From contig CBDCNQ010000002.1 in NCBI GenBank assembly GCA_965219445.1, positions 192,001 to 256,000 on the forward strand: a stretch of DNA of 64,000 nucleotides. The letters are read 5' to 3'. Positions 12,310 to 32,935 of this stretch are shown piece after piece. This stretch comes from Longimicrobiales bacterium (GTDB taxonomy: Bacteria; Gemmatimonadota; Gemmatimonadetes; Longimicrobiales; Gaopeijiaceae). The position numbers were made by a program, and so were the translations under genes. How positions within the stretch are numbered: position 1 is the stretch's first letter; every line of letters starts with the position of its first letter. The notes beneath the pieces are model-generated. The model searched no databases, had not been told where the DNA came from, and saw nothing but the letters and a program-made list of their open reading frames with translations.

Positions 12310-12334
12310 CAGGGACCGAAAAGGGGGGCTGACA

Positions 12335-14214: not shown

Positions 14215-14325
14215 GAGTGCGCGGCGGAAGGGCGGAGCCAGCCGTCCGTCTGGCGTTCGAGTTCCTGGTGCTGACGGCTGCGAGGTGGAGCGAGGTGCGG
14301 TGGGCCGAGTGGGCAGAAGCCGACA
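14215..14325 (+). pseudogene. Internal fragment of a P4-type integrase
   Basis: AVRLAFEFLVLTAARWSEVRWAEW is homologous to KLALEFMVLTATRSSEVRGATW of 15228-16412. Confidence 0.7.
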
Positions 14326-14390
14326 GGTTCACATCTGCTTGGGGTAATTGAACTTACGGGCATACCGGACCGGATTCCCGCCGATTGGTC

Positions 14391-15053
14391 TCAGGCGCGA
14401 ACTCTGCGGCGGCTTTCCAGAGCCTTCCTGAGCTGTGCCTCATCGGCCCGCTGGTAGCAGTGCAGCACCGTCTTGGCCTCCTTCCAACCGCCGAGTTCGC
14501 AGAGCACTTTGAGCGGCTGGTCCATGAGGTCGGAGGCGAACTTCCGCCTTAGGGAGTGCCAGCCGCGGCCACGCTTGGATTCCAGCCCTGCGAGCGCTAC
14601 GGCCTTCTCCCACCAGCGCTGCGTCCAGGAACAGCTCACGCACCTCGAGCGATCCCAAGGCGAGGGCAGCACGGGCGCGTCCCCGATACCGGGATTCCTC
14701 TTTCGCGCCTCCTCCAAGACGGCGAGCGCCTCGGCGGTGACCGGCGTCCGGTGCTCGTAGCCCGACTTGTCGTGCTCTGCGCGCCAGCGGATGGTCTTGC
14801 CCTCCATGTCGATGTCCGACCACCGGAGCTTGCGGATTGCGCCGATCCGGTGTCCGGTCTCGTGCGCGAGCACGAGCGCGGCGCGGAACCGCCAGTCGAC
14901 CTGCCGGGACACCTGTAGAAGCGCTTGGTACTCCTCCTCGGCCAGGACGATTCGGGCCGGGTTCTTCTGCTTGGGCGTCTTCAGGCCCTTGAGCGGGTTC
15001 GAGCCGAGGAGCAGTTCGCCCCGCTCGTCCCTCGACTTCACGGCCAAGTTCAG
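14391..15053 (-). pseudogene. C-terminal (catalytic) half of a tyrosine integrase split by the 15036-32434 island
   Basis: SRDERG...ETGHRIGAIR..GWHSLRRKFA..LGGWK..CYQ, collinear with residues 174-387 of 29972-31135. Confidence 0.9.
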
Positions 15054-15227
15054 TATTGTGTTCGCCAAGATCATCCCATGCCGTCCCATGACGTTCTGTA
15101 ACCACATGTATTTCAATATATTAAGGCGATCCTAGGCCGCTTCATGGCCTTGCCTCTTGTCCTGATCCGTCTGGTATTGTATCATTATTTCTCCGTCATT
15201 TCGTGATACACAAGTAGGACACCCCGC

Positions 15228-16412
15228 ATGCGTAAACGACCCCTTACCGCTGCCTTCGTGGCGCGGGTGAAGACGCCGGGCCGCTACGGCGACGGTGGAC
15301 GAGGCGGGCTCGGGCTGTACCTCCGCGTCCACCGTATGAAGTCGGGGCGGGTCTCCAAGTCGTGGGGCCAACGCGTTCGAGTGGGGGGCAAGCCCACCAA
15401 TCTCGGACTCGGCTCGTACCCGGTCGTGACGCTCAAGGAGGTGAGGGAGAAGGCGCTTGAGAACAGGCGGGCCGTCCATTGGGGCCATGACCCGAGAGAC
15501 GCGGGGGTTCCCACCTTCGAGGCGGCCGTCAAGAAGGTGATCGAGATTCACTCGCCGACTTGGAAGAACCCTTCCCGCATCTCGGGGCAGTGGCGGCAGA
15601 CGTTGCGGGACTACGCCCATCCGCGCATTGGCCGGAAGAGGGTGAGCGAGGTCGCGACGGCCGACGTGCTAGCCATCCTCAAGCCCATCTGGTCGCGCAA
15701 GCCCGCGACCGCGAGGGCCGTGCGTCAAAGGATCGGCGCGGTGATGAAGTGGGCCGTCGCGAAGGGCTACCGGCCGGACAACCCGGCGGGAGACGCCATC
15801 GCCGCGGCGCTCCCGCGCAACGGGAACACGACCCGGCATTTCAAGGCGCTCCCGCACGGCGAGGTGTCCGTGGCCCTGGTCAAGGTCCGCAACTCGGGGG
15901 CCTACGCCGGTGGCAAGCTGGCGCTCGAGTTCATGGTTCTGACCGCGACACGCTCGAGCGAGGTCCGGGGCGCGACGTGGGACGAGTTCGAGCACGATGT
16001 CTGGACCATTCCCGCCAGCCGCATGAAGGCGAAGCGCGAGCACCGGGTTCCCCTGTCGAGGCGGGCGTTGGAGATCCTTGAGGAAGCCCGGGAGCGCCAC
16101 GACGACGGCGGGCTCGTGTTCCGGGGTGCCAGGGGAGGAAGGATCGATGCCTCGATGTTTGGCGCCTTGCTCCGGCGTCTCGGCTTCGACTGTACGCCGC
16201 ACGGGATGCGGTCCTCGTTCCGCGACTGGTGCTCGGAAACGGGCGTGGCGCGCGAGGTGGCCGAAGCGGCGCTGGCCCACGCTGTCAAGAGCAAGGTTGA
16301 GGCCGCCTACGCCCGCTCAGACCTGTTGGAGCGGAGGCGCAAGGTCATGGAGGCTTGGGCCGACTACGTCGCCGGCGAGCATCCCGAATCGGAGGCCGAA
16401 CCGGGCCGCTGA
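15228..16412 (+). CDS. P4-type tyrosine integrase (394 aa) of the island
   Basis: Arm domain (PGRYGDG..GLYLRV..LGLGSYPVVTLKEVR); LTATRSSEV, RMK, TPHGMRSSFRDW, ALAH, AAYARSDLL. Confidence 0.93.
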   Translation: MRKRPLTAAFVARVKTPGRYGDGGRGGLGLYLRVHRMKSGRVSKSWGQRVRVGGKPTNLGLGSYPVVTLKEVREKALENRRAVHWGHDPRDAGVPTFEAAVKKVIEIHSPTWKNPSRISGQWRQTLRDYAHPRIGRKRVSEVATADVLAILKPIWSRKPATARAVRQRIGAVMKWAVAKGYRPDNPAGDAIAAALPRNGNTTRHFKALPHGEVSVALVKVRNSGAYAGGKLALEFMVLTATRSSEVRGATWDEFEHDVWTIPASRMKAKREHRVPLSRRALEILEEARERHDDGGLVFRGARGGRIDASMFGALLRRLGFDCTPHGMRSSFRDWCSETGVAREVAEAALAHAVKSKVEAAYARSDLLERRRKVMEAWADYVAGEHPESEAEPGR

Positions 16413-16440
16413 GGCGCTGGCTTATGACCGTTACTGGTCC

Positions 16441-16521
16441 TAAGCCAGCCTACCCTTTGTACCCACAAAGGGGCTGGCGAGGGGCTCCGCCCCTTCGATC
16501 CCGAAGGACGCCCGCGCTCCG
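16441..16521 (-). promoter_or_regulatory. Putative ColE1-type (MOBP5/HEN) oriT, copy 1
   Basis: Minus strand GGGTAGGCTGGCTTA resembles the ColE1 nic site CTGG/CTTA; adjacent hairpin CCCTTTGT-ACCC-ACAAAGGG; 81-bp repeat with 25459-25539 (1 mismatch). Confidence 0.65.
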
Positions 16522-16736
16522 CTGCGGTGTGCGTGCTCGCCCAGCGGAGTACCGAAGGCCCGAATCACGGCAGGAGATCACGTAAGTCTAATCAGGACTG
16601 CACGATCTGCCACTCTTGCCGTTGGGCTATATCCGTTTCCGTCAGATCATGATGGCGGGAAAAACAGGGTTGATCAGCGGGAATCCGGACTAGCTTAGAG
16701 TGCTCTTGTCGGCGGTCGAAGGATCATCGCGGCGGC

Positions 16737-17440
16737 CTACAAGGGAGAGGGTTCCCATGAGGACTGGTCCTCTTTCATCCGGTAGTGTGACACACGCGAG
16801 CCGACCAGACGCCCTGGGTCCAGCGGATGCTTGGCGAACGGGTTGTGGTACACAGCCAAAGCATACTCGGGGTCTCCTGCCGTGTCCGGTAATTCCGGCC
16901 CGGACAGACCGAAAGGAATCGCGACGCCATCGAAAAACTCGCGCAGCACGGCGATGCAGGACACCGATGTGTTCATCTCGGGAGTCAGCTTCTTGCCGGG
17001 ACCTGTTCGCGGATAGGAACGATAGGCGAGCCCTGATCTGTCGGAACGTAGTACTCGATGACATCCAGACCGCGCATGGCGGTGAGCACGGCGTAGGGGT
17101 CGTCGTGTAGTGTGCATGGGGTACGGTTGTACACGACCACCATTCCCGGGTCAGACTGTCCAAGCGCCTTTAGCTGATTGTTGGCCTTCGGGATCACCTG
17201 ACGCAGCCGATGTCCCGGTTTGCCGCCTAGCACGCCTGACCCCCTTCCTTGTGCTGCTTCCTGTTCCTCCGGATTCGGATCGAATTGCTTGACCTCCACT
17301 ACGATACCAGCACTATCCCCCAACTGGAGGCGGAAATCGGGCACCTTGCTGCCCTCCGCCACGGAGTGCTCGTCAATCCTCTCGACCCGCCAGCCTTGAG
17401 ACTTGCAGAAGCGGTGAAAAAGTTCTTCGGACTCGGTCAT
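16737..17440 (-). pseudogene. PD-(D/E)XK-like hypothetical protein, frameshifted near 17005
   Basis: KVPDFRLQL...VVEVKQF motif; continuation GPGKKLTPEMNTSVSCIAVL in another frame. Confidence 0.55.
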
Positions 17441-17618
17441 CCGGCGTTCTATCTTTCAAATGAAGTTTCGAGGAGCTCAAGAGATCAAAGATAAACAGGC
17501 CGGCCGCGTCCGCGAGTCGGGCGATCAGTCGCGCCCGGGACTGTGACCGCGATCCGCAGTCCGCCCGCCCTGAAGCCTGCGGGCTCGACGGCCTCGGTCG
17601 TTTGACCCTTCGCGCGCC

Positions 17619-18940
17619 CTATTGGGGAAGCGCTTGTTCCAGCAACTCGTAATCCGTCACGAGATCCAACACATCTCGCGCCTTTCCGGAAAACTGCATC
17701 GGAGCGAGTTGCTCTGTCACCAGCGCCGACCGCAACTGCAATCGGTCTACGGGAACACCTACGAAGTCCGCAAGCCGTTGGCGATTGGCTTCAAGAAACG
17801 AAACACGGTCGAGGTGCCTCTGCAATGGCGTGCGTTTCCCGTCAACAGTTCCGGCAGAGTACTCTTTCAAGCGCTCCCCGATCTCGCCGCAGGTGCGGTC
17901 GCAACGGAGGCTCTTGCACTCGACAGCGTACACCAGCCCGGTAGCCGGTTGCCATGCCAAGACATCCACATCTCCGAGCGACTGGCCGCCTCCGAATCGC
18001 GGGAGCCTCACTTCCCCCTTCGTCTTCCACCGCAACTCGCCGAGCCGTTCGGCTACCCTGCGCGCGAACTCATGCCCATTCCTATCTGCCGCTCTTCCTA
18101 TACAGGCGCCCATCTCTGGACTGTCAAAGAGGGTCCCTGGAAGTTCGCCGAATGCCGCTTGGTGTAGGTAGCGCAACGTCCCAGCAAGTATCGAAGGCAC
18201 CACGGTCACGAAGGGATCGGCCTCCATCGACAATTGGACGAGCGGACGGCGCATGATGGACAGACGGCGGTTGTATCGCCACGGCCACCAGTCTCTTGCC
18301 CTGGCGTTGTCAGGATCATCCTCATTCCACCGAGATCTGGGAACAAGCGCAAATGCTTCGAATACACGCTCCGGATTCATCACGCCGACATGTCGTAGCC
18401 GCTGGACGACTTCGCTTCTCCTGAGCCGCAAATGGGCGCCGTTCGCCTCCAAGGCTTCCACCGTGAGTCGATGGACAAACGTCCCGTACTGTTCTGGGCT
18501 CAGGCCAAACTCGGCGAGAAAGGCGGATGGGAACTTCGGGTCCGCCGCTCCTTCCTCGCCTGCGCTCATACCGTCGACTTCGTCATCCGTCGCCGCATCC
18601 CGAAATGTTCGCTGCCAATGTTCGGTTATCAGCAGACCTGTCGCCGCTGCGGTTGACTCGTCGAATCCGAAGGAACCATTCGGGTGCATGACCGGCGGGT
18701 GCGTCGCTAAACCGTAGTGCAACGCGTCGCTTTGCCCGGCACATTCCAGAAGCGTCGCAACCTCCGCAACCAGAAGGTCGAGGTCCGTCCCCGAGCAGGG
18801 TGATCCGGTACCGTACGGCGATGTGCACAGCGCCATCTCCGCAATGATCCGGCAAGCCAGACCGGCGGTATCCCGGCGAAGGACGTGCTCGTTCGCGGCA
18901 CCCCTGACCTGCGCATGGTCGTAGAGGGCGAGTTGCGCCG
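17619..18940 (-). pseudogene. C-terminal part of a large protein ending in a PD-(D/E)XK/NERD-like nuclease domain; 5' end lost
   Basis: LGDVDVLAW...VYAVECKSL; abuts the mob fragment at about 18943. Confidence 0.55.
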
Positions 18941-18942
18941 CC

Positions 18943-19404
18943 GTCGACGCGCATCCAGGCCCGGATCCAGACGGCCGCCGCCCTCGACGTGGACATCGAG
19001 GAGGCCCGCCAGACGCTGGCGCGGCTCGAGGAGACCACCTGGGGGATCGTGCTCCGGGAGATCGAGGGGGAGCGGTTCGTGGTGCTGCCGGCCGGCGCGC
19101 TGGCCTATCCGCCCTGGACCGTGGACACTCGGCCGGCCGTGAAGCTGTCGAGCAACTGAAGGAACTCTATGACCGCGTTAGAACAGCAGTTGACGAAGGC
19201 TTTGCGGACGTTGTCCGCGCAGTACGAGCAGGCGCAGCAGCAGCACACCGCGCAGGTCGAGACCTTGCGGCGGCAGGTCGCGCAGCTCGACGGGCAAGTG
19301 AAGCACTTGGCCCGGGACTACAGGACGCTCGCCGAGACGTTGCGCGCGCGCTGGACCTGATGCGCCAGCGTGGACGAGAGCGCGATCACGGTCCGAGCCG
19401 CTGA
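18943..19404 (+). pseudogene. 3' remnant of a ColE1-type mob region: relaxase (MbeA-like) C-terminus overlapping an MbeB-like C-terminus (stop at 19159)
   Basis: One frame reads QTLARLEETTWGIVLREIEGERFVVLP (MbeB-like); an overlapping open frame ends ELYDRVRTAV...RERDHGPSR* (relaxase-type tail). Confidence 0.7.
19169..19360 (+). CDS. MbeD/MobD-like mobilisation protein
   Basis: MTALEQQLTKALRTLSAQYEQ.. coiled coil resembles the ColE1 MbeD start; nested in the relaxase frame; AAGGA RBS. Confidence 0.7.
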   Translation: MTALEQQLTKALRTLSAQYEQAQQQHTAQVETLRRQVAQLDGQVKHLARDYRTLAETLRARWT

Positions 19405-19506
19405 TCACCCACCAGGGAATACGTACCCTCTGCGGCACACGAGACAGCACAGTTCTCCGAATGCGCCCGCAGTGGACTTCTCCACCACATTTCTTCCGAT
19501 ACTCTG

Positions 19507-20664
19507 CTAATTCCTCGTGTTCGTGCCCGTAAGGAACATCGCTGTGCGAAGAGCCACAAGCTCAGAGCGTGCGGCGGCGATGTTGTCGAGCACTGTTGTG
19601 CCTGCTTGCACCACAGCTGAGGGTTCATCGATATCTTCTACGCGGGGCTCCAGGGGAGCGACGAGGACGTCACGTCGCTGGTTTAGGAACAGCTGAATCT
19701 GGCTCTGCAGAGACACTCGATCTTGGGGGAGAAGCCTGTCCAAAGGCGGGAGGTCGAGCATGGATTGGAAAACAACCAAAGCACTCAACGGCTCGGGATC
19801 TCGTTCGACGATGCGCTCCTGGAAGGCGTGAAGACGGAAGAATGGCGACTCCGAATCAGGGACCTCTGGCTCATTCGATAACTCATCGAATGTTACGCCA
19901 AGCCACCATTCTCTCCAGGCCGACGGTGGGGCAAATGACCATTCTCGCTGCGCGAATATGCGATCCACCGTTGCCCTGGACCGTTCAGAACGAACGGCCA
20001 AGATCGACAAAACGGAGTCAGCAAATATTCGTGCAGTGTCGGATGCTGCGGACATAGCTGGGGCATTCGCGGACCACGTCAAAACGTCGTCACTGGCCTC
20101 GCGCATGCTGTCCGACAGCGCCGCTAACTGGAAAAAACGGTCCCGGAAGAAACGTTCTTGTGCTCGGACACGAGCTAGTGTGGCTAGTTCTGTGATCGAG
20201 TCAACCTCGGGCACCCGGTGTTCCAATTCGAGTTGGCGTCCCACCTCCAGCCATTCGAGGAGTTCCTGATATTGAATAGCTCGATGTACCTCGTCTTCTA
20301 GCGTCTCTAGCTCGCGGATGGCGATGTCGTATACGTCCACCACAACCCGTTCATAAGTATCGGAGAAGTACTGACTTCGATCTTCACGGAGCGACATTAC
20401 TTCGGTGGACAACGACGATCGGGTCGCTCTTAGATCGCTTACGCTGTCGAGAACGGCCCTCAGCTCATTGCCGAGCGAGTCGAGCTCCGTACGGATGTCG
20501 TAAATCACACGCCGTGACTCTCTAAGCTCTTGTTGTGGAGCAAACAACCGAATTCCGATTAGCGTTACCAAGAGCACGAAAGTTCCGAGAATAGAAGTAA
20601 GAGCCCACATCGATATCTGTCTACGGGGTTTCGACGATCTATGGCTCGTATTTGTATCAAACAT
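19507..20664 (-). CDS. Hypothetical membrane-anchored coiled-coil protein (385 aa)
   Basis: Single N-terminal hydrophobic helix (MWALTSILGTFVLLVTLIGIRLF), long helical region; start overlaps the upstream stop (TGATG). Confidence 0.7.
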   Translation of the reverse strand: MFDTNTSHRSSKPRRQISMWALTSILGTFVLLVTLIGIRLFAPQQELRESRRVIYDIRTELDSLGNELRAVLDSVSDLRATRSSLSTEVMSLREDRSQYFSDTYERVVVDVYDIAIRELETLEDEVHRAIQYQELLEWLEVGRQLELEHRVPEVDSITELATLARVRAQERFFRDRFFQLAALSDSMREASDDVLTWSANAPAMSAASDTARIFADSVLSILAVRSERSRATVDRIFAQREWSFAPPSAWREWWLGVTFDELSNEPEVPDSESPFFRLHAFQERIVERDPEPLSALVVFQSMLDLPPLDRLLPQDRVSLQSQIQLFLNQRRDVLVAPLEPRVEDIDEPSAVVQAGTTVLDNIAAARSELVALRTAMFLTGTNTRN

Positions 20665-21818
20665 CAGGACAAGCCACGCTTCCGGACTTGCTCAGTCAAA
20701 CGAAACACCTGAACTGAAATTAGGAAAACAGCTACTGAAGACCCGGTATATGTCAAGAATTGCCACCATGGCTCCTCTGGACTGGACACCGCGCGACCGC
20801 ATAGAACCGCGACGGCGATAGTTGGGAAAATGACCAAAGATGTGATCGACAATAACCGTGCTATCACATGTGACTGGAACAAAACGATCGGAAGGTTAGC
20901 TATCGCATCCTTGGTGTCCTCGGGATTCCCAGCGGAGAGGCTGAGGAGATTTGACAACAGAAACAGCATTAGGAAAATCATCCCGGGGAAAGCCAAGATC
21001 AGTGCCACCCGCTCACTTATCGAGAGACCGATGAACTGCAGGCTGTTCTCTTCTGCGGAGAGGCGCTCGGTTGCGACAGCCAGTCCCTCTCGTGGAAAAA
21101 GGTGGCGCACTTCACTCCAAACCGGTTGGAGCCTCGGGAAGACGCCGCCTGCTCCGGCGGCGAGGTCTACCAGAATAGGGTCGAAAGCGTGCGACCCGCC
21201 CCAGCCCGATCCACCTCCACTGACGGAGTCCATGACACTTGCAAGCCAGAGGCGACCCAGGTGGTTCGGAAACGGCGCCGGGATCGTATCCGAGGCGAAA
21301 ACCTCGAAACCCTGCTTACCCAGATCTTCTAATGTCTCGAATTCTACGATCCATGTGCTAAGCTGATCTCTGTGGATGCGGGCGAGCGATAGGCCGCAGG
21401 TTCCACAGGTCAGTCGCAGGGAAGCCACCGCAGCCGCAAACTCTGCTGAATCGGGGAGGATGATTGCCCAATTGGGTGCGTTGAAGAACTCCTGAAGTTG
21501 AGAAATCGTTGATTGTGGATCAAGTGGCTGAATCTCAACGAGTGGAGCGAAGTCCGGGGGTTCCTCCGTCTCAGTCGGTCGCACATCGCGATAGCGGACC
21601 AGCAAGTCGTGGACGGGTATCGCATCGCCCGCCTCAGCGAAGCTCGCCATGCGCTGCGTAACACCCTGAGAGAGGATTTCTACGAGTCCGTTCAACTCAG
21701 GGAGAGCGCTGGAGTACCGGTCTGTGTTCTTCGGCGCAAGGGCGAGTATCATCACCGCACCCGACGCCAGCGCTACTGAGCGATGAAGGACGCGGATCGT
21801 CTTGACTAGTTCTTCCAC
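20664..21818 (-). CDS. Hypothetical membrane protein (384 aa; one N-terminal and about three C-terminal TM segments)
   Basis: Hydrophobic segments at the N-terminus and from about residue 270; translationally coupled to 19507-20664. Confidence 0.7.
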   Translation of the reverse strand: MEELVKTIRVLHRSVALASGAVMILALAPKNTDRYSSALPELNGLVEILSQGVTQRMASFAEAGDAIPVHDLLVRYRDVRPTETEEPPDFAPLVEIQPLDPQSTISQLQEFFNAPNWAIILPDSAEFAAAVASLRLTCGTCGLSLARIHRDQLSTWIVEFETLEDLGKQGFEVFASDTIPAPFPNHLGRLWLASVMDSVSGGGSGWGGSHAFDPILVDLAAGAGGVFPRLQPVWSEVRHLFPREGLAVATERLSAEENSLQFIGLSISERVALILAFPGMIFLMLFLLSNLLSLSAGNPEDTKDAIANLPIVLFQSHVIARLLSITSLVIFPTIAVAVLCGRAVSSPEEPWWQFLTYTGSSVAVFLISVQVFRLTEQVRKRGLS

Positions 21819-22058
21819 GGGTGGACAGGTTCAGAACGAACGGACGAACGGAGTTCATCGCGCCGCCGTGTCGGAGTGTTGAGCATGCCACGCGTTCTCG
21901 GCCGAAGCGGTGCGACTTGGCATGTGCACAATCGGAATAGCCATCTTGGAACAGGAGCGCGAGTGCACAGCGCATGTGCCACCCTAGGTGTCATGACCGT
22001 GATTCCCCGAACGGCAGTGTATCCGCCCGATCGCTGGCCCGTAGGCGCGCCTGCTTTT

Positions 22059-22520
22059 TCAACACGAGGATCGATTGCCCAGCGGAGTCCGCGCCACGCC
22101 GTCCGTACGATCCAGGAATTCCCGTATGCGATCTGCAATCCCATCTCCCGCCGCAACGTCACACTCCCAAACCACTAGAACGCTCCAGCCCAACTCCGCA
22201 AGCCGCGCTTGGTGCTTAACATCGCGGGTGACGTTGTGTTCCAACTTCGGCAGCCAGTAGTGCTGGTTTGACTTCGGGCGGCGAGCGATATTGCAGGTAG
22301 GATCGGGGTGCTGGTGCCAGAAACAACCGTGTACGAAGATCACTTTCCGCCGACCTAGAAATACCAAGTCGGGTTTTCCTGGAAGATCGTTGCGATGCAG
22401 CCGATAGCGGTAACCCATTGCATGGACAAGCCGACGCACGGCCATCTCGGGTTTCATACCCTTGGCTCGGATGTTGGACATGATCTCGCTGCGGCGCTGC
22501 GGAGTGACGGTGTCGGCCAT
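22059..22520 (-). CDS. vsr: Very short patch repair endonuclease
   Basis: MADTVTPQRRSEIMSNIRAKGMKPEM..LPGKPDLVF..VIFVHGCFWH..LVVWEC. Confidence 0.95.
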   Translation of the reverse strand: MADTVTPQRRSEIMSNIRAKGMKPEMAVRRLVHAMGYRYRLHRNDLPGKPDLVFLGRRKVIFVHGCFWHQHPDPTCNIARRPKSNQHYWLPKLEHNVTRDVKHQARLAELGWSVLVVWECDVAAGDGIADRIREFLDRTDGVARTPLGNRSSC

Positions 22521-22671
22521 CAGGATTCCTGACCACGAGCGGGTTGCACCGATAGGCCGGTCGACGCCCTCGTCCGGTCGCACCGCTCCGGCTGCGCTGC
22601 ATTCATAACGCATTGCACATGGCGATGACTCGGGTGGCGCCGTCCGAACGCGGCATTGGCTGCTCCTAAAC

Positions 22672-23532
22672 CTAGATCACGAGATCAAGGGGAAGGTCGG
22701 AGATGTCTCGGAGCCGTTTGCCCTGAGTCATGGTCTCCAGCATTTCTTCGGCGTCGGCGAAACCGAGATCTCTGACGGTATCCTCTAGTTCGGGTAGAGC
22801 AAAGTGATAGACGCAATCAATGTCGCCCGTTCCAAGCGCGATTGAGGCTATGCGGTTTGGTGTCGGTTCGCCGGTTACAACGGCAACGTGAGGAAGACGG
22901 CCCTTGCGGTTCCGCACCAAGTTCAACGCTTCGGAGCGCGCGTTCTGCGCGCGATCGCTACGGATCGTCCATTTGCACGACACGCTGGCATGAAGAATTG
23001 GCATCCTGCTGTTCACCTGCCGCAAGGGAGTGCGGCGTGCTTGCATGTTGTCCACCAGCAGTCCGCCGGTGTTGATGGTCCTATCGGTCTCGGGAAATCG
23101 GATGACTACCACATCGGGCTTGATGAGATAGTCGCCTCCAAGGGCAGCGGCCAGTTCGCGGTTGGCCTTGGCGGCGGCCTCCAGTGCAGCCAAGTGCTCG
23201 TATTGGTCGTATTGTGCGATGGCTGCGCGTCCGCCGATACCCTTGCTGACCTCCCAATGGCCAGGACGGAGATGAGCGAGGCGGGGAAAAGTGTGCTCCA
23301 GATACTGCTTGCAGATTTCCTCGAACTGACTGCCGGCCATCTGTCCGGCCAAGCGCCCACCGGCGGCTCTAGGCCCAAGGCGTTCAAGGATACCACGAGC
23401 AATGCTGACGCTTTGTCTGCTGTGTTTATCCGCGTTGCTCGGGATGCCCCTTGAGTCAGTGCGAAGCACGGTGGCCAAAAGGGCGTTGTGGAAACTCCGG
23501 CGGGCCTCGGAGAAAAAAACCTCGGCGGTCAT
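22672..23532 (-). CDS. Type II restriction endonuclease, NgoMIV family
   Basis: IPSNADK, DYLIKPDVVV, LHASVSCKWTIRSDRAQNARSEALNLVRNRKGRLPH, ALGTGDIDCVYHFAL. Confidence 0.9.
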   Translation of the reverse strand: MTAEVFFSEARRSFHNALLATVLRTDSRGIPSNADKHSRQSVSIARGILERLGPRAAGGRLAGQMAGSQFEEICKQYLEHTFPRLAHLRPGHWEVSKGIGGRAAIAQYDQYEHLAALEAAAKANRELAAALGGDYLIKPDVVVIRFPETDRTINTGGLLVDNMQARRTPLRQVNSRMPILHASVSCKWTIRSDRAQNARSEALNLVRNRKGRLPHVAVVTGEPTPNRIASIALGTGDIDCVYHFALPELEDTVRDLGFADAEEMLETMTQGKRLRDISDLPLDLVI

Positions 23533-24512
23533 CCGGCGATCTTCATGACCTGTACAGAACGGGGCACAGCAAGGCAGTGGTGAATCTTCCCTGCGACGGC
23601 GCGCGCTACAGGAGGAGGGAAGGCGTTGCCAACTTGGCGGTACGAAGCGGTCTTGCGGCCCGAGAATTTCCAGTCGTCAGGGAAGCCTTGAAGACGGGCC
23701 ACCATGCGAACGGTGAGGCGGGGCATCCCGACGAAGTCACGGGCGGGTGGTTCGTCAGCGATGCCAAGGCCATCAACTCCTAGTGTCGCCCATGCCTTCC
23801 TGGCACGGGTCGGCCCCAGGTCTGGACCACCGTGTTTCAGCGAACCGCCGACGATCGTGGGGGCGATATCGTCAGCGCGCTTCTTCCATGCAGGCGCGCC
23901 CTTCCATCGGCGTTCAGTGATAAGATCATAGAGGGTATCACCGACTGTTGGCGCGTTACGGCCCGTGCCAGTCGGCCAAGAGAAATGATGGGCAATGTTC
24001 TTGCGCAATGCGACTATCACCACGCGCGGCCGGAGTTGCGGCACGCCAAAGTCGGAAGCGTTGAAGAGGTGCCATTCGGCGTGGTAGCCCATCTTCTCGA
24101 ATCGGGCCTTGAGCCGCTGCCGAAAGTCTTCGAATACTGCGCCGAGGATGCCCCGGACGTTTTCGAGCATGACCGCGCGGGGTTGCGTAATATCGACAAG
24201 ATCAAGGGCGACTGGGAACAGGTTGCGCTCGTCCCGATCGCCGAGCTGCTTGCCAGCTATTGAGAACGGTGGACACGGAAGGCCACCCGCCAGTAACTCA
24301 ATGCCTCTGAAGGATTCCCCGTCGAGGTGAACGAAGTCGCGCAGATCCTTCTCGAACACCTGCCATGCAGGCCGGTTGAGCCTCAGTGTATTGCAATAGT
24401 GGCGCTCGATCTCGACGAGCCCTTCGTGTCCGAACCCGGCTTGCTCCAGGCCGAGTGCCTGGCCGCCGCCTCCAGCGCAAATCTCCAATGAGCTGATCGA
24501 GGTCCCAATCAT
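23529..24512 (-). CDS. dcm: DNA (cytosine-5) methyltransferase
   Basis: ICAGGGG motif I, GGLPCPPFS, MLENVRG, GVPQLRPRV, RLQGFPD, YRQVGNA. Confidence 0.95.
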   Translation of the reverse strand: MIGTSISSLEICAGGGGQALGLEQAGFGHEGLVEIERHYCNTLRLNRPAWQVFEKDLRDFVHLDGESFRGIELLAGGLPCPPFSIAGKQLGDRDERNLFPVALDLVDITQPRAVMLENVRGILGAVFEDFRQRLKARFEKMGYHAEWHLFNASDFGVPQLRPRVVIVALRKNIAHHFSWPTGTGRNAPTVGDTLYDLITERRWKGAPAWKKRADDIAPTIVGGSLKHGGPDLGPTRARKAWATLGVDGLGIADEPPARDFVGMPRLTVRMVARLQGFPDDWKFSGRKTASYRQVGNAFPPPVARAVAGKIHHCLAVPRSVQVMKIAG

Positions 24513-25458: not shown

Positions 25459-25539
25459 TAAGCCAGCATACCCTTTGTACCCACAAAGGGGCTGGCGAGG
25501 GGCTCCGCCCCTTCGATCCCGAAGGACGCCCGCGCTCCG
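25459..25539 (-). promoter_or_regulatory. Putative ColE1-type oriT, copy 2
   Basis: GGGTATGCTGGCTTA on the minus strand plus the same hairpin as copy 1; extra hairpin GCACCCT-T-AGGGTGC at 25443-25457. Confidence 0.65.
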
Positions 25540-26114
25540 GCGGAGTGCGCGGGCGGGGGGCTCGCCCCCCGAACCCCCGTGGCGGTGCGCTGATGGCTGA
25601 TCGCCGCCTTGATTCTAGTTCTTTACCGACCGAGGGGGGCGTCTAGGCCCTGCCGCTGTGTGGATGGGTGGGTGCACGGCCCCAACGCGCCCAGAAGCGA
25701 AGCTAGGCCCCTCTAGCGTGCGTCGATGGCGAGGGGATCCGGGAGCAGTAGCAACGTCCCCAACCACCACCGCACGACCAACGCATCCCGTGAATCTTTT
25801 TGGTGTGTTGGTTGTGTTGGAGGCCGACGGGCCTGACGACCCAGTCTATCTTGGCGTCTCTCGAACGGCTGCGTATCAGGCACCTAGCTCTGCGTAGTAG
25901 TCCAGACCGAGATGAATCTTTTGTGTCATGTGAGCCACCGCATGCAGATCATGGAGCACGTGGTAGCCACCGTCCTCAGGATAAGGCGAGCCAGCGCGCT
26001 TCCACGTCTCTCTCACGTTGATCCTAGCTCGCCTTGCGGAGCGCAGGGGTAAATGCGGGATCGTCCATCTCGCCGGTATCGACCCCGGCAGCGTGGCTGA
26101 TGGCGGACATGGCT

Positions 26115-26260
26115 TGGGCGCTGACGACGAAGAAACAGATCTACCGGGCTCACGCCACTGCCTGACGCGGCGGCAGGAGGTAGGAAGCTGTAGGGGATCT
26201 GGGCGGGACGAAGAACGAGTGAGGACAAACGATCAACGATAGGGGATCGGGGAACCCGGC
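26115..26260 (+). mobile_element. Remnant of a second IS110-family element (last codons plus start of the 3' non-coding region)
   Basis: WALTTKKQIYRAHATA* versus WALTTKKEIYRAHAAAA* of 34182-35207; similarity continues about 90 nt past the stop. Confidence 0.7.
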
Positions 26261-26940
26261 ATCTTCCGTATTAGTTCTTCGAACCGGTCAAGGAAGTGTG
26301 TGTCGTACTGTCGTGCCACATGTTTCACATTCCAAAGTCCGCTCATTCGGATTTCGTTCTTGGAACTGTGGACACCCAGCCATTCGCTATTGGGCCGGTC
26401 CATCGGACTGAGCTCGTTGGAGAGTAACGCTATAGCATTCTGCTCAACGTAAGCACGTGCACTGCGTGGACCCGGGTCGTCGGGTACGGCCAGCCACAGT
26501 ATCGACAACCCCACGATGTACTCGGACACCAGGCGTTCGTGAGGAACTTCCGCGTTCCTCACGTCGCGCGCGGCCGATCGGCCGATACCCCATTTTGGCA
26601 CGGCAGCGGCGCCTCCATCCCTTTGGAGCAGCGCTAACCCCACATGGAGCCGGAAAACGGATCCGCGGTGGTTCCCTCGTCCGTCCTTCCCGCCACGGTG
26701 CGCCCGCAACCGGGGCCACAGCTTGGACGTGGCGTTCGCGCTCACGGCGTGGGTCCCTACCCTGATAACACGCGACATCTCTGGGTGCCCGGTTCGCTGT
26801 TGACCCGGATCACGGAAGAAGTACACGCCGCGATCCGGCCAAGCCGATCTACCCGTGTATTCACCGAGCCGCCGACCTTGACCCGGCAGCGTTGCCAGGA
26901 TGCCAACGAGTTCGTAGAACCGGTCTACGTCTGAGGTCAT
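26233..26940 (-). CDS. GIY-YIG-like nuclease-fold hypothetical protein
   Basis: GVYFFR..VIRVGTHA..LWPRLRAH..GNHRGSVFR..AYVEQNAIALL..LWN. Confidence 0.55.
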   Translation of the reverse strand: MTSDVDRFYELVGILATLPGQGRRLGEYTGRSAWPDRGVYFFRDPGQQRTGHPEMSRVIRVGTHAVSANATSKLWPRLRAHRGGKDGRGNHRGSVFRLHVGLALLQRDGGAAAVPKWGIGRSAARDVRNAEVPHERLVSEYIVGLSILWLAVPDDPGPRSARAYVEQNAIALLSNELSPMDRPNSEWLGVHSSKNEIRMSGLWNVKHVARQYDTHFLDRFEELIRKMPGSPIPYR

Positions 26941-27404
26941 TCCCCGAGCAGGCCTTGGATCTTCAAATGCTGAAGTTGTTTCCCGAAGGAGAGGCCCTCG
27001 AGCGGAATGGTAACAGAGAAACCACGGTCGCGGAGAAAAGGAACGAGGTTTTCCCGGTAGCGTACACCGGCCAGGATGACCACCTCGGCCCCGAGTGGCA
27101 GAACCTCAAGTAGTTGTCGTTGGACCAGCGTTGCCCATTGTAGCCTCTCGGCCTTACCGAGCCGATTGAGCGTCCTCTCATACGGCTCAAGTACCTGGGC
27201 TGGGGGAATCAACCCATGTTGTGCGGAAAGGACGAACCAGGTGTCTGCGTTCTTCTCGGCGTACCGGCGCAGCCCGCGGAACAATGGCGACGTGTACAGG
27301 TCGCGGGCCGCTGCGGGGGCCGCACTCTTGGACTTGACGCATGAGACGAGTGCTACTCGCATGGATCGATCACTTCTTGCTGACGATGATATCCGCTCAT
27401 TCAT
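26937..27404 (-). CDS. DUF6884-like protein
   Basis: ALVSCVKSK..ARDLYTSPLF..WFVLSAQHGLI..PYERTL..ILAG.RY; ATGA overlap with the downstream gene. Confidence 0.75.
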   Translation of the reverse strand: MNERISSSARSDRSMRVALVSCVKSKSAAPAAARDLYTSPLFRGLRRYAEKNADTWFVLSAQHGLIPPAQVLEPYERTLNRLGKAERLQWATLVQRQLLEVLPLGAEVVILAGVRYRENLVPFLRDRGFSVTIPLEGLSFGKQLQHLKIQGLLGE

Positions 27405-27420
27405 TGGTGCTTTCTTCCTT

Positions 27421-28360
27421 TCACATTGTACGCCACCGCTTCTCGGCCACCAAGAGCAACTTCCAGATCAGCGCCGTAGCGCTCTCGACCCGCTTGAATC
27501 GCTTCGCCGCCGTCGTCCTGAGCCGTAGCGCAGCGAACGGGCTCTCGACCACGTTCGTCGTGCGTAGATGCTTCCAGTGATCCTCGGGGAAGTCGTAGAA
27601 CGCCACCATCCGCTCCCAGTCGTCCTCGAGTACGTCCACCGCCTTCGGATACCACGGCCTGTAGCGCCTGGCGAACACTTCGCGGGCCTTCACAGCCTCG
27701 GCCCGGCTCGGTGCGTAGACCACGGCCCTGAGAAGATCCTTCGCCTCGCTCTGCTCCCGCTGCGGCAGCCGGTCCAGCACGTTCCTCATCTTGTGGTTCC
27801 AGCACCGTTGCTCGCCCGCCTCAGGCCATACCTGCCGTACTGCGCCCCAGATCGCCGCGTTACCGTCCGCCATCAGAAGCCGGGGCGCCTCGATGCCGCG
27901 TGCCTTCAGATCCCGCAACACCTCGGACCAGGACTCGACCGACTCTCGGTAGCCCGATCTCAGGGCCAACACCTCCTTCGTCCCGTCTCGCATCGCGCCC
28001 AGCACCACCAGCAGCGCCGCCTTGTCCCGCTCGAGCCCTGCCTTCACGTAGATCCCGTCCGCCCATACGTAGACGACCTTCACGGCCCTCCAGGCGACGC
28101 TGGCTCCATTCCTCGAACTCCCTTGTCCATCCCGCCCGCAGTCTCCGAATCGAAGACTTCGACAGCGGTGCCCCCTCGCCTAGCAGTCCCCGCATCGCCA
28201 GCTCGAAGTCTCCCTCTGCCAGTCCGTGCAGATACAGCTCCGGAAGCAGAGCGCCCAGCTCCTTCGTCCGCCTCGCGAACAACGGCAGCACCCGACTCTC
28301 GAACCGCTCCTCGACGCCCCGAACCCGAGGGCGTCGGAGTGTGATCGTGCCCGAGCTCAT
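27421..28360 (-). mobile_element. IS256-family transposase (second type), frameshifted near 28083 and truncated at both ends
   Basis: ITLRRPRVR..FESRVLP, VYVWADGIY, LLMADG, EQRCWNHKMRN, LRTTNVVES. Confidence 0.85.
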
Positions 28361-28463
28361 CGCCGCGTGCTGGGCATTTTCAGCAGCACGGTGGGTCCTG
28401 ATCCTCCCGGATCTACGGCCCGTGGTCCGTGGCAGCCGCCCGTCCGTGGGTCCGTGGTCCGCG

Positions 28464-28590
28464 GGTTTCTGTCCTAAACCCAACGGGTAGCACGATTTGC
28501 GATCTTCGCACACACCCAGTGATACACGTCTCCCGCAAGGTACTGCAAGCCGTTGTCCCATCGGGATTTGCGAATACTGATCCCGGCTTC
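28464..28590. repeat. Island right-end (attR-arm) sequence, copy 1; homologous to 32293-32420
   Basis: About 127 bp sharing TGTCCTAAA, CACGATTT.CGATCTTCG, GTGATACACGTCTC, CAAGCCGTTGTCCCAT and ACTGATCCCGGCTTC. Confidence 0.85.
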
Positions 28591-29045
28591 CCGCCAAGCT
28601 GCCGGTCGCGCTGGACGCTGGCCGCGCCGTCTTCGTGTACGTCGATCCGGGGCACCAGACCTCCACGGCGCTCCGCTCTTGGGGCGCGGCCCACCACGGC
28701 CTCTGGAAGGCTCTGAGAAAGCGGTGCAGATCCGTCGAGGTCGTGGCCGTCGTCCGCAGCGTGAGGGAGCTGCAGCGCGCCGGGACGATCCTCGAGAACT
28801 GGATCGGTGCCCGCACGTCCGACTCCTCCGGCCCGTCCGATCAAACAGCCCGCCGCGAGATCGCCCGGATCGAGCGGGCCATCCTCGAGGGGGACGACCG
28901 CGCGCTGAAGGAGTACGGGGATCTCCAGGCCGGCCTCGAGCGGATCGTCGAGCTGAAAGAGCTCCAGCGGATCTCGAGGTCCCTAGCGCCGATCGATTGC
29001 TTCGCTACGTGGCGCTCGAGCCGGCTCCCCGGAGGGTGGTCATGA
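28587..29045 (+). pseudogene. C-terminal half of the mobile-element hypothetical protein family seen at 1-432
   Basis: (FP).KLPVALDAGRAVFVYVDPGHQTSTALRSWG begins exactly at the att-arm junction; the fragment at the window start ends in RYFP. Confidence 0.6.
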
Positions 29046-29220
29046 ACGCCGATCGGCGAGGGTCCGTGCCGATCGGGAAGCGCACATCAGACAATCGTGC
29101 GTGTGTGCGCCGGGACGCTGTTCCCCGGCAAACACACGCTCCTTCTCATGTGGTTGACTGTCTTGCGGTTACGGGCTGGCCGCACGCGCGGCCGCCCAGC
29201 CCCGAGGGGCTCGGGGCAAA

Positions 29221-29664
29221 GAGGGAGCGACCCCCCGATTTGGGATGCCTCGATCGGCATCGCGGAGGATTGGCATGTGCACGCCCATGCCACCCTCCGC
29301 CGGGGGGTCGCTCCCTACCATTGATCCCTGCGGGAAGGCGGTTGGCCGCCGCTTCGACGGCGGCGATTCATCCGCGCGACGACCGCTCGTCCGTCGAGCC
29401 GAGGAGCATCGGGCGGCGCCCGCGGCACCGTTCCCGGGCACGGCACGGGAAAACGGGCCGACAACAACGGACGCCGGGACGAGCGGGCTGGACGGTCCTT
29501 GGCATTCCCTCGCGCAGTAGTCCGTCTTCTCGAAGCGGCGGTCGATGGCCTTCCTGCAAGGACTGCTGGCTGGGAGCGACCCCGCAGCGGAGGGGACGAT
29601 GGGGATGCACATCGCCATCCTCCCCGATGCCGATCGAGGCATGCCGAGATGGGGGGTCGCTCCC
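29221..29664. repeat. Pair of inverted ~93-bp units (29223-29315, 29572-29664), each bounded by GGGAGCGACCCC...GGGGTCGCTCCC
   Basis: Read directly; partial copies at about 6275-6310 and 35849-35884; GATCGGCATCG also at 29685 and 29815. Confidence 0.8.
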
Positions 29665-29971
29665 ATCCACGGCCAAGGAACGCGGATCGGCATCGGCGTT
29701 CCGCTGGCCGTGGTGCAACCGCAAGCGCGCAAGCGACATGGGGCGGCGGCGGCGTGTCCCATCGCAGGCGCGATTTCGTGTCCGGCCACCCCCAAAGTGC
29801 CATGGGCACTCGTGGATCGGCATCGGGCGCACCGATTCGGGTCCGGGCCAACGCCTTCCGAGCGGCTGAACAGGGCGCAGGGCCGGCCGAGCAGCGCCTG
29901 GCGGAGAAGCCCCGCCGACGCGACGTTTCAAACGCGCAGATCGTGCAGTCCATCATCGAAAAAGGAATCGA

Positions 29972-31135
29972 ATGATGGCACGCACGAAACGAGTTCGGCG
30001 CAGCTATGGCGCCGGCGAATGGGGCCGGAACCGGGTGAGGGTCTTTCCCGATCCCAAGACCGGCTTGTTCCAGATCGAGTGGCGCGAGAACGGGCGCAGG
30101 CTCACGAGGTCGCTGAAGCACCGCGACTGGAGGTCGGCGAAGCGGCAGGCCGACGAGTTCGCCGCGGGCTTCGCCGGGCCGGAGCTGAACGGCAAGAAGA
30201 ACGCCGAGCCCGAGCCGCTCACGCTGAAGACGCTTTTTGACATCTACGGTGAAGAGGTGACGCCCACCAAGGCCGAGGGGACACAGCAGAGCGACAGGAC
30301 CGCGACCGGGATGTTCCTCCAGTTCTTCGGCAGGGACCGCGACCCGTCCACACTCTCCCAGCGCGACTGGGACCGGTTCATCCGGGAGCGGCGCGCGGGA
30401 AGGATCGGCATCTCGGGCAAGCCCGTGTCCAATCGGACGATCGAATGGGACCTGACGTTCCTGATGGCCGTGCTCAACTGGGCGGCGAGGTCGAGGGACG
30501 AGCGGGGCCGCCTGCTCCTTGACCGGAACCCGCTGAAGGGCCTCAGGAAGCCTATGGAGAAGAACCCCACCCGGGTCGTCCTCACCGAACAGGAGTACCA
30601 GGCGTTGTTGAGGGTGTCCCGGGAGGTGGACTGGCGGTTCCATGTCGCGCTCGTGCTCGCGCACGAGACCGGGCACCGCATCGGTGCCATCCGCAAGCTC
30701 CGGTGGTCCGATATCGACTCCGAGGGCGAAGCGGTGCGGTGGCGGGCGAAGCACGAGAAGACGGGCTACGAGCACACCACGCCCGTGACCGACGAGGCGT
30801 TGGCCGCTTTGGAGGAAGCGCGAGCGATGAGCGCCGGGACCGGGGACGGGCCGGTGCTGCCCGCCCCGACGGATGCCTCGCGGTGCGTGGGCCGGTCGCT
30901 GCCGAGCTTCTGGTGGCAGAGAGCCCAGAAGCTCGCGGCGCTGGAACCGAAGCGGGGCCGAGGCTGGCACTCGCTGAGGCGGAAATTCGCGTCCGACCTC
31001 ATGGACCAGCCGCTCAAGGTGCTGTGCGAACTCGGCGGCTGGAAGACGGCCAAGACCGTCCTCCAGTGCTATCAGAGAGCCGACGAGGGACAGCTGAGGC
31101 AGGCGCTCGCGGACCGCCGGAGAGTTCGGGCCTGA
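29972..31135 (+). CDS. Intact tyrosine recombinase/integrase (387 aa)
   Basis: ETGHRIGAIR, HEKTG, GWHSLRRKFA, LGGWK..QCYQ; preceded by the tail of an HTH/xis-like gene (AQIVQSIIEKGIE*, ATGA overlap). Confidence 0.92.
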   Translation: MMARTKRVRRSYGAGEWGRNRVRVFPDPKTGLFQIEWRENGRRLTRSLKHRDWRSAKRQADEFAAGFAGPELNGKKNAEPEPLTLKTLFDIYGEEVTPTKAEGTQQSDRTATGMFLQFFGRDRDPSTLSQRDWDRFIRERRAGRIGISGKPVSNRTIEWDLTFLMAVLNWAARSRDERGRLLLDRNPLKGLRKPMEKNPTRVVLTEQEYQALLRVSREVDWRFHVALVLAHETGHRIGAIRKLRWSDIDSEGEAVRWRAKHEKTGYEHTTPVTDEALAALEEARAMSAGTGDGPVLPAPTDASRCVGRSLPSFWWQRAQKLAALEPKRGRGWHSLRRKFASDLMDQPLKVLCELGGWKTAKTVLQCYQRADEGQLRQALADRRRVRA

Positions 31136-31736
31136 TTCCCAATCGGCGGGAATCAATCGGCGGGAATGGCGTCGGCCGAATCCGTAAGTTCAATGATAAC
31201 AACAGATCCGCACGGGAATGCGCATGCTCGCCCAGCGTGCGAGCCGTGTCCGGTCGCGCCCGATGGATCCTGGCCAGGCGGCTCCGCAGCGACCGCGTCA
31301 CCACCTGCGGCCTCGTGGCGATAGGCGGCGTGCTCCGCCGGGCGTGGGCACGAGCTGCGCCGGTGACGCTGAGGCGGTCCGCGGGGATCGCACCGGCGAC
31401 GCGGTTCGCGACGGCGGCACCCACCGCTCGCTGCCCCGGCAGCGGCGCGGGAAGTTGGGGGACAGGGGCCGGATCCCGGCGCTCGGGGCCGTAGAATCGT
31501 TTCTAGGCGCATTGGGGCCGCCACCCACAACCCCCCCGGGGGTTAGGGGTTCGCCACGCGCAGGCGGTCCCTCACCGCGAAGGCGACGGCTATCACCGCG
31601 CTCCGCCGCCGCCGCCGTTCACTCAACTCGGCAGCATCGTCAAGCGTCCACGTGAGCGTAGGGACGCCCGCGAACGTAGGCAGCAGTCGAAGGTTGAAGA
31701 ACTGGCAGCGAAAAAAAGCCGCCGCGCTTCGAGAGA

Positions 31737-32156
31737 TCATGCCATATCGGCCAAAGTCTCCCGAACTAATGCTACATCTTCCTCGAATCGATGGTCTTTA
31801 CCATCACCGGATAACCCAATCACTCGATATGTCCGGAGATCGGGTGCCAGGCGATTGAATACAAACCGACACTGATTAACGCATTGCCTAGTTTTTTTGT
31901 TCTTCAAATTCGGCTTCATCAGTACCAGTAACTTCTTGGGGCAGGGGTGCATCAATAGATCAACAATGGCTGCCCGAACCTGTTTCTCGTTTCTCGCTTC
32001 GACTTCAATTGCTATATCGTTTATCACGCCATCTATATTTGCATTTCCATCGCCCAAATTAGCCACAACCTTGGGGCCATCGGTGTATAATTCAGGACCG
32101 CCTGCTTCTCTTAATACTTTTTTTCCGTATCCATCATGGTCTGCACGTTCATTCAT
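31737..32156 (-). CDS. Low-GC hypothetical protein, possible PD-(D/E)XK fold
   Basis: ANIDGVINDIAIEVEAR motif; visibly AT-rich relative to the flanks. Confidence 0.55.
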   Translation of the reverse strand: MNERADHDGYGKKVLREAGGPELYTDGPKVVANLGDGNANIDGVINDIAIEVEARNEKQVRAAIVDLLMHPCPKKLLVLMKPNLKNKKTRQCVNQCRFVFNRLAPDLRTYRVIGLSGDGKDHRFEEDVALVRETLADMA

Positions 32157-32292
32157 TTTACTATCCTAGCGTAGGTCGACTTTGTGTATAACGTCGTTGC
32201 TAAGGTCGATGCCCATCTGTGCGCTCGACGATAGCATATACCGGACGCGTTACCAGAGCCCCCCCCCCCGCCACACCACGACCGAACGGTTA

Positions 32293-32420
32293 GGTTTTTG
32301 TCCTAAAGCCAACGGGTAACACGATTTACGATCTTCGGACACACCACGTGATACACGTCTCTCGCAGGGTGTTGCCAAGCCGTTGTCCCATAGGGACTTG
32401 CGAAGACTGATCCCGGCTTC
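32293..32420. repeat. Island right-end (attR-arm) sequence, copy 2
   Basis: Homologous to 28464-28590; ends at the split integrase junction. Confidence 0.85.
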
Positions 32421-32935
32421 ACGGCCCAGTTGAGGACCGCGAGCAGGAACTTCAAGTCCCGTTCGATCGTCCGGTCGGACACGGGTTTGCCGCTCGGGCC
32501 GACCCTGCCCGCCCGGCGCGCCCGGATGAAACGGTCCCAGTCGCGCTGGGAGAGCGTTGCGGGCTTCCGGTCCCTGCCGAAGCACCCGAGGAACATCCCC
32601 GTCGCGGCCCTGTCGTGCCGCCGCGACTGTTCACACTTGGTGGGCGTCACCTCTTCACCGTAGATGTCAAAAAGCGTCTCCAGGGTGAGCGGCTCGGACT
32701 CGGCTTCGGCCTTGCGGTGGAGCTCCGGCCCGAGGTAGCCAGCGGCGAACTCGTCCGCCTGCCGCTTCGCCCGTCTCCAGTCGCGGTGCTTCAGCGACCT
32801 TGTGAGCCTGCGCCCGTTGTCGCGCCACTCGATCTGGAACAGGCCGGTCTTGGGATCGGGAAAGACCCGTACCCGGTTCCGGCCCCATTCGCCGGCGCCG
32901 TAGGAGCGCCGGATAGGTTTCGTGCGTGCCATCAT
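32417..32935 (-). pseudogene. N-terminal half (173 codons) of the integrase whose C-half is at 14391-15035
   Basis: MMARTKPIRRSYGAGEWGRNRVR...LLAVLNWAVK, collinear with residues 1-173 of 29972-31135. Confidence 0.9.

Follow-up and report, generated by a model that had tools for sequence, protein, structure and literature searches.

The window analysed here is a stretch of 64,000 nucleotides from a Longimicrobiales bacterium (source genome G000, contig C2, positions 192,001 to 256,000; C numbers denote contigs). Within it, the gene of a 387-aa integrase, IntH, is cut at codon ~172 by an island of 17,381 bp (core to core) and no bases are lost. IntH belongs to a family of ICEs (integrative and conjugative elements), and the island carries a P4-type integrase of its own, IntP. 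The island is probably an ICE-embedded satellite of the integrative-mobilizable kind, whose IntP clade would move between ICE genes. The initial annotation of this DNA had proposed a site-specific insertion into the integrase gene of another mobile element, and our analysis supports that proposal.

The N-terminal part of IntH (codons 1-173, 519 bp, ending NWAVK) lies at 32935-32417 and the C-terminal part (codons 174-387, 645 bp, starting SRDERG; PF00589, E 4.7e-19) at 15035-14391, both on the minus strand. The halves are in frame, add up to the 1164 bp of an intact paralogue at 29972-31135 and align to it gap-free up to the junction, which bears out the arrangement first annotated. Every catalytic motif is kept in the C-terminal half, at the same positions as in the paralogue. 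The junctions share an exact block of 10 bp, CTTCACGGCC, at 15036 and 32417; in the extended form given originally, 16 of 18 positions agree. This 10-mer alone is unremarkable, with eight copies within the window, and its weight comes from its position, which is that of the two breakpoints and of the element ends that paralogous islands have kept. By sequence comparison, the left attachment core is at 15036..15045 (+) and consists of CTT and the 7-bp overlap CACGGCC. The right core at 32417..32426 (+) has the identical 10 bp, and an identical junction is found in G087/G042. Near the junction, the nearest allele of both halves is the same one, on C3 (93% and 96% identity), so they do not group with different gene variants. 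This allele is also the only one of the 17 other IntH copies with a matching core and represents the uninterrupted site in the genome.

The left arm of the island (15046..15227, +) is homologous in 30 relatives and equally long in them (180-191 bp). It contains an IHF-like motif at 15111 and candidate arm sites at 15203 and 15215, all of which presumably serve in binding. The right arm (32293..32416, +), with motifs at 32299 and 32348, is 85-92% identical to five further right ends in the genome, an internal copy apart, and was present in all five other genomes queried. GTGATACAC at 15203 and 32348, TAGGACA/TGTCCTA at 15215 and 32299 and the IHF-like motif stand where they were first placed; third copies of GTGATACAC (28519) and TGTCCTA (28470) had been overlooked, both within the internal right end. 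The P4-type integrase reported near the left end is present, but its start is 182 bp from the core and not ~175. Similarly, the 11-bp inverted arms described for the rebuilt site exist as sequence, with 8 of 11 positions paired, but relatives do not conserve this register; in one gene-X island, a count by hand gave about 4 of 11 pairs. The left arm also extends the orphan C-terminal half of IntH in frame by 27 codons with start codons (15116-14391, minus strand); therefore, a protein consisting only of the catalytic domain could be made.

IntP (15228..16412, +; 394 aa) has the P4-type domain set, with Arm-DNA-bind_3, Phage_int_M and Phage_integrase all above cut-off, while its match to NCBIfam PRK09692 is below cut-off (117 of 434 bits). 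P4-type integrases usually target tRNA or tmRNA genes, which is a tendency and not a definition. We surveyed the relatives of IntP by sequence search in a comparison set of 314 genomes of the same family. Relatives with at least 78% identity, taken from the source genome and others, are present in 18 of the 314 genomes. The junction table comprises 30 non-redundant copies with a readable integrase start; truncated copies lacking it (L019, L027, L029, L127, L136, L151 and L260) and loci duplicating each other were left out. Thirteen left junctions are at codon ~157 of gene X, a conserved ICE gene, and 11 at codon ~180 of virD4; two are in IS3 transposase genes, two in IntH, one in a methyltransferase gene and one at a contig end. 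Thus, 26 of the 30 are in ICE genes. There was no tRNA gene at any of these junctions, in 23 further upstream flanks or in the window, and tRNA was rejected as the target across all 53 flanks; homologues restricted to tRNA sites, which would have spoken against the proposed insertion, were not what we found. The initial annotation had also regarded the island as a dedicated parasite of integrase genes, which does not hold for the IntP clade as a whole: 24 of the 30 junctions are in two genes of the ICE conjugation region. In a metagenome scan, none of the best 80 matches exceeded 61% identity to IntP.

The two IntH cases are the island of the window and a rearranged copy in G128 (codon ~74-77). 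In G128/G043, the nearest right end lies 19 kb away in virD4; because of this, we treated the case as a rearrangement and rejected it as a second insertion into IntH. G156, G007 and G042 have N-terminal pieces of IntH that stop around codons 59-76; these were set aside as well, as they had no island ends. At G042/G087:C1:739000-757500, one ICE contains two IntP-clade islands, in gene X and in virD4.

Across the 30 junctions the core reads CTT-N7-AA(G/A), 180-191 bp upstream of the integrase start codon. Thirteen different 7-mers were found, and the 7-mer follows the target. Six integrases that are 95-98% identical sit in four unrelated targets (gene X, virD4, IS3 and the methyltransferase gene). 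Both ends could be read in nine islands: the 7-mer was the same at both ends in eight and differed by one base in the ninth. Three junctions have a 6-base overlap (28587 in the window, L207 in G007 and L212 in G131), and these look like scars of imprecise recombination.

We propose that IntP would bind the core CTT-N7-AA(G/A) and exchange strands across the 7-bp overlap. When a new site is used, the overlap of the island would be replaced by that of the target, through mismatch-tolerant integration followed by repair or by excision and re-entry. The takeover of a target overlap through the use of secondary sites is a route known from work on phage lambda. Overlap mismatches seem to be tolerated, because the end pairs differ by one base in some islands (one of nine in the IntP clade and two of six in the IntQ islands described below). 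Takeover of the target overlap would make near-identical integrases able to move between ICE genes. Location in an ICE would place the island beside the mating machinery; upon induction of the ICE, the island would leave, so that the host gene is rebuilt, and pass to a new cell through the pore of the ICE by means of its own origin of transfer (oriT), with an MbeA-like relaxase provided in trans. Passages of PMC10111431 describe core recognition with a 7-bp overlap for tyrosine integrases, and passages of PMC5704250 and PMC5357655 propose excision and transfer through the ICE pore for streptococcal integrative and mobilizable elements (IMEs).

A sister clade provides a firm case, by its sequence pattern, of an integrase aimed at the integrase gene of another element. 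IntQ, a second P4-type integrase, is 61% identical to IntP, and two identical IntQ islands split two different IntH alleles of the source genome at codons 32-36. Beyond a threshold of 1e-150, IntQ had 11 matches in the 314 genomes; one has 68% identity and the other 10 have 85-100% (nine genomes). Eight of these 10 loci follow IntH codon 36 (seven of the nine genomes, four genera) and two are in unrelated genes. The rest of IntH resumes 4.7-5.9 kb onward in six of the eight, in one of them with a small deletion. Of the remaining two, the locus in G085 showed no right end within 40 kb and that in G204 runs to the end of its contig. Other P4-type integrases of the source genome (47-54%) abut breaks in virD4 (codon ~505), virB11, ardC and the junction of the excisionase-like gene (xis) with IntH. 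At the breaks in virD4, virB11 and ardC, the remainder of the gene follows at a distance, preceded by a short direct repeat. Another, third P4-type integrase, which shares 54% identity with IntP, abuts IntH codon ~23 in the opposite orientation (L270, G156:C9:181500-188000, positions 2228-2451), which is a possible third site in the IntH gene.

For codon 172, a comparison is possible with G042/G087, from another genus, where the same island right end is joined to the same core and to IntH codons 1-173. Compared with the window, the N-terminal half of IntH is 96% and the island end 92% identical in this second genome. Codon 172 of IntH has probably become a minor site on which the window lineage is established. 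The signs of such a site group are its own branch in the integrase tree, the arm match and the same right junction in another genus. IntP is 85-87% identical to its nearest full-length relatives and sits on a long branch of its own, and the island arm matches the IntH target arm at 7 of 10 bases, compared with 3-5 in three other islands.

Alternatively, an island of the gene-X/virD4 type might have inserted once, by chance and off target, into a look-alike core in IntH and been inherited since, so that codon 172 would not be a dedicated site. We consider this unlikely, though it has several observations behind it. A looser core, ACTT-N7-(A/C)AG, occurs 635 times in the genome, the IntP clade has evident off-target members (IS3 twice, the methyltransferase gene once), and the codon-172 junction is known from two genomes only, possibly from one event. 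Off-target events are also documented for integrases of helper-embedded phage-inducible chromosomal islands (HE-PICIs) in passages of PMC10111431, and a single conjugative transposon inside an integrase gene is described in passages of PMC4755523. A chance insertion fits poorly with both ends bearing the overlap of the target, three bases from the nearest common gene-X overlap (CCCGCTC), with IntP being at least 13% different from every full-length relative, and with an island arm more like the IntH arm than in other islands.

Public reads were examined in four runs. In two of them, X14 and X15, the joint 15035-32417 was found with 10 shared letters, which is the empty site as DNA. Run X17 had six cargo contigs with 0-2 differences from the island, one of which runs into the right core. 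Among the pieces shown in the runs examined, no record bridged either junction by 31 bases. Sponge or coral labels on small shares of other runs are no evidence of habitat.

Several points weigh against the reading of the island as a satellite settled at this site. The use of codon 172 rests on two genomes, with two exact matches to the junction pattern in 314, while two matches with two mismatches, in G191 and G134, were taken as chance; in G042/G087 only the right junction survives, the left end was not found within 60 kb and the C-terminal half was not found by genome search. Because the identities are 92-96%, a single old event fits both genomes. The empty-site joint may come from an allele that was never interrupted, and a circle or attP joint was not among the 15 joints listed of 125. 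No full-length integrase closer than 87% to IntP was found in the 314 genomes, G191 has a 90% copy that is truncated and therefore tells nothing about the site, and only 9 of 21 inner branches of the IntP-clade tree have strong support. Neither a full relaxase gene nor an AlpA-like gene was found inside the island, the AlpA-like genes lying outside, one of them at 5479-5703. In profile scans, no relaxase was recognised among the ICE genes, and gene X had no family in Pfam or NCBIfam, solely weak helix-turn-helix matches below cut-off.

The initial annotation went further and supposed that the island is a dedicated parasite of integrase genes, the excision of which would work as a switch, turning the host element back on. 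Here the state of the host ICE is informative. The family has a complete locus at G000:C5:231796-246000, with IntH, an excisionase-like gene, ardC, virB11, virD4, gene X, a virB8-like gene (a name we presume from its position after gene X), virB6, virB10, virB9 and a VirB4-like ATPase gene. It thus combines integrase, type IV secretion and coupling-protein genes, as expected of an ICE, which the remnant in the window does not. The closest relatives are records of Longimicrobiales or Gemmatimonadetes (Gemmatimonadota) and one of Bryobacterales. In the window, the host is reduced to an excisionase-like gene (32932..33384, minus strand; 150 aa, named from position and conservation, with no family match), the split IntH and one end. 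This integrase-side end (14306..14390, minus strand, an approximate outer limit) matches the IntH element end at G000:C5:929537 for ~85 bp past the IntH stop codon and then diverges. Neither the window nor C2:225,000-345,000 (120 kb on the host side) has a match to virD4, virB11, ardC, virB6 or virB10. The genome has 18 close copies of IntH, comprising 13 intact 387-aa open reading frames (ORFs), two with an altered end and three split by islands; one of the 13 lies within the island.

Because none of the transfer genes queried was found for the host and 13 intact IntH copies exist, an excision switch at the window locus is unlikely, and this part of the initial annotation is not upheld. As a whole, the reading as a dedicated parasite with a switch seems rather improbable to us. 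It would explain the perfect restoration of IntH with its catalytic motifs; the IntQ islands show that some integrases do specialise on integrase genes (8 of 10 loci, six of them with both ends at codons 32-36), and the G042 host still keeps xis, ardC, virB11 and most of virD4. Against these stand the missing transfer genes of the host at the window locus, the 13 intact paralogues (the island's own copy among them) that could substitute in trans, and the other genes used by most IntP relatives. This copy of the island is more probably a passenger that has come to rest than a switch in operation, because the host is a remnant and the composite island has lost its relaxase.

Where IntQ islands sit in complete ICEs, they may act as a lock on the helper. 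We raise a wider form of this idea only tentatively. P4-type satellites might partition the essential genes of ICEs, and those in IntH, of the IntQ or IntP type, might act as a lock, in which the helper leaves the chromosome only after excision of the satellite has rebuilt the gene. Retargeting would be fast, because the integrases read only CTT-N7-AA(G/A) and adopt the 7-bp overlap of the target, which might be written into the two ends simultaneously, much as in a target-site duplication. If the lock is true, the satellite circle would be timed to the transfer of the helper.

The last alternative is that IntP did not make this insertion at all, and that the arrangement comes from a self-splitting integrase with attP in its own gene, from repeat rearrangement or from misassembly. 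The genome is rich in near-identical repeats, the island interior is mosaic, the IntP left end in IntH of G128/G043 is paired with a right end in virD4, and three left and three right gene-X ends in the source genome are unpaired; all the same, this origin is very improbable, as the order is N-terminal half, insert and C-terminal half, the island has a complete integrase, conserved element ends lie at both breakpoints, the right junction recurs in an independent assembly, and run X17 supplied the matching cargo contigs with one into the right core. In self-split integrases the gene halves stand in permuted order.

The interior of the island is composite. A candidate oriT hairpin stands just after IntP (16441..16478, +; z -3.8 for 16430-16520) and is repeated at 25459..25496 (+). 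The genome contains 17 copies of it, and their stems co-vary. Five of these are 263-460 bp upstream of MbeA-like relaxase genes, four of them at 459-460 bp, and the function of the hairpin as an oriT is suggested by this placement. We presume a likeness to the nic site of ColE1, which the paper passages did not confirm. Of the relaxase gene itself, the island has a 3′ remnant (18940..19404, +), which covers only residues 339-499 when compared with a full-length relative. Full-length copies are present elsewhere in the genome; such a relative matches PF03432, with NF047848 below cut-off. By the usual features of an IME, the island has its own integrase and attachment sites at both ends, but no relaxase of its own (iMOB subtype). 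No phage genes were found among the island ORFs. Of the mating-pore genes, none was found among the scanned island ORFs, and virB6, virB10, virB11 and virD4 had no match in the window.

The cargo includes defence-related genes by profile scans. A fragment at 17619..18836 (minus strand) matches the C-terminal third of the Upx defence model (PADLOC E 1.5e-53, profile 850-1250 of 1271). Two ORFs of ~385 aa without a family match (19507..21818, minus strand) are followed by Vsr, an NgoMIV-type restriction enzyme and a C5 methyltransferase (22059..24512, minus strand). A PADLOC-type scan gave a candidate defence pair, PDC-M57B / PDC-M57A, at 26233..27404 (minus strand). Next to it is a piece of a Mutator-family (IS256-type) transposase with many genomic copies (27435..28364, minus strand).

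The right third is a nested ICE remnant with an internal right end, half of gene X and an intact IntH. The internal right end (28464..28595, +) is 87-92% identical to 32293-32423 and has an overlap of 6 and not 7 bases. By sequence match, it is joined to the C-terminal half of gene X from codon ~157 (28587..29045, +), the commonest target of the IntP clade. This additional right end, with half of a different ICE gene attached to it, makes the island a composite. The intact IntH paralogue (29972..31135, +), aligned above, is preceded by the tail of its excisionase-like gene, and its site reads CCT-CGCCGCC and not CTT-CACGGCC. The segment 29304-31461 is 96% identical to G000:C5:623795, and pieces of the remnant are 96-99% identical to the region around C5:611,000-626,000. 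A 135-bp inverted repeat of X-virD4 intergenic sequence at 29223-29664 marks a rearrangement in it.

Gene X (L001:9163-10098, minus strand) lies between virD4 and the virB cluster and encodes a conserved ICE protein of 311 aa, with more than 3000 relatives. Its nearest named Atlas cluster is DUF5697 at 0.87, which is a lead only, and its best PDB profile match (E 0.005) was judged not credible. By position only, gene X is a candidate for the ICE relaxase.

Other recombinase genes were seen around the host and elsewhere in the genome. At G000:C5:461572-463932 and C4:223775-226135, an IntH element end is joined head-on to another IntH at codon ~370, with the C-terminus replaced. This arrangement recurs in G225 and, less clearly, in G221, so IntH elements may themselves insert into IntH genes. 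Directly beside the end of the host ICE, at 14188-14330, is part of another P4-type integrase gene, which contigs connect to integrase-like sequence. A truncated P4-type integrase (33589-35581) lies upstream of the host xis and is interrupted by an IS110 element, whose flanking repeats are at 33938 and 35548. Two more tyrosine recombinases lie beside the host end at 10685-13543; one is broken into ORFs 10685-11629 and 11553-12050, and the other (12254-13543) is intact and nearly unique in the genome. Further away, 39244-60164 resembles a polysaccharide-synthesis region, with flippase-type and glycosyltransferase-type ORFs on inspection of the first translations.

Among known systems, SSV1- and Mx8-type integrases are split by their own attP on integration, and excision restores the gene. 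In those the split gene is the element's own, whereas here it belongs to a different element, the island integrase is whole and the order is not permuted. Recurrent targeting of an ICE integrase gene was not found in searches of an open-access library, apart from the single case in PMC4755523; TIGER tables and supplements lay outside the search and may list such sites. Passages of PMC8138268, PMC13626063, PMC12884075 and PMC5495485 contain nothing on integrase-gene targets. The single case is CTnPi2-a of Prevotella intermedia OMA14, likewise a mobile element within the integrase gene of another, but the passages of PMC4755523 present it as one copy, with a twin in a tRNA gene, and not as a recurrent site. 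The oriT-only integrative elements (iOriT; bioRxiv 10.64898/2026.01.13.699239) share an integrase, attachment sites, the absence of a relaxase and a presumed oriT with our island, on which defence cargo is also present; insertion inside ICE genes is not described in the passages of that work, and the oriT here is a candidate.

Our results extend helper-gene-embedded satellites to tyrosine-integrase islands in ICEs of Gemmatimonadota and add the helper's own integrase gene as a target, used recurrently by one clade over four genera. Six enzymes of 95-98% identity at four sites, with differing overlaps mostly matched at both ends, offer a test bed for how a site-specific integrase changes its target, and short-site integrases could serve as genome-writing tools. 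As the islands carry restriction and other defence genes, this route may spread defence cargo among these bacteria.

The closest parallel is with streptococcal IMEs. According to passages of PMC5357655 and PMC5704250, these sit in conserved genes of Tn5252-superfamily ICEs, namely traG/virD4 (two sites), maff2 and snf2. As here, they are integrative elements of small size, they interrupt conserved genes of ICEs (virD4 among them), one ICE can hold several, and those passages propose a model of excision, restoration and hitchhiking. However, the 12 elements in question use serine integrases, while the tyrosine-integrase IMEs there insert into genes for tRNA or ribosomal proteins, into a few others or into oriT, and an integrase-gene target is not mentioned in the passages. 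The islands described here have 26 of 30 sites in conserved ICE genes and differ in their P4-type tyrosine integrases, their phylum, the MbeA-like relaxases and the sites IntH, gene X, virD4, virB11 and ardC. HE-PICIs, according to passages of PMC10111431, have one tyrosine-integrase clade with repeated site changes among helper genes, no replacement sequence and off-target members. Similarly, our clade changes site among the genes of a helper element and disrupts them. The helper of HE-PICIs is a prophage and late genes are the targets, in contrast to a conjugative host here; neither a late prophage gene as target nor the AlpA and other PICI genes were found for our island, which has no phage genes among those identified and no AlpA-like gene. 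By these defining features the island is a member of neither group, and in its working it resembles both streptococcal ICE-embedded IMEs and HE-PICIs.

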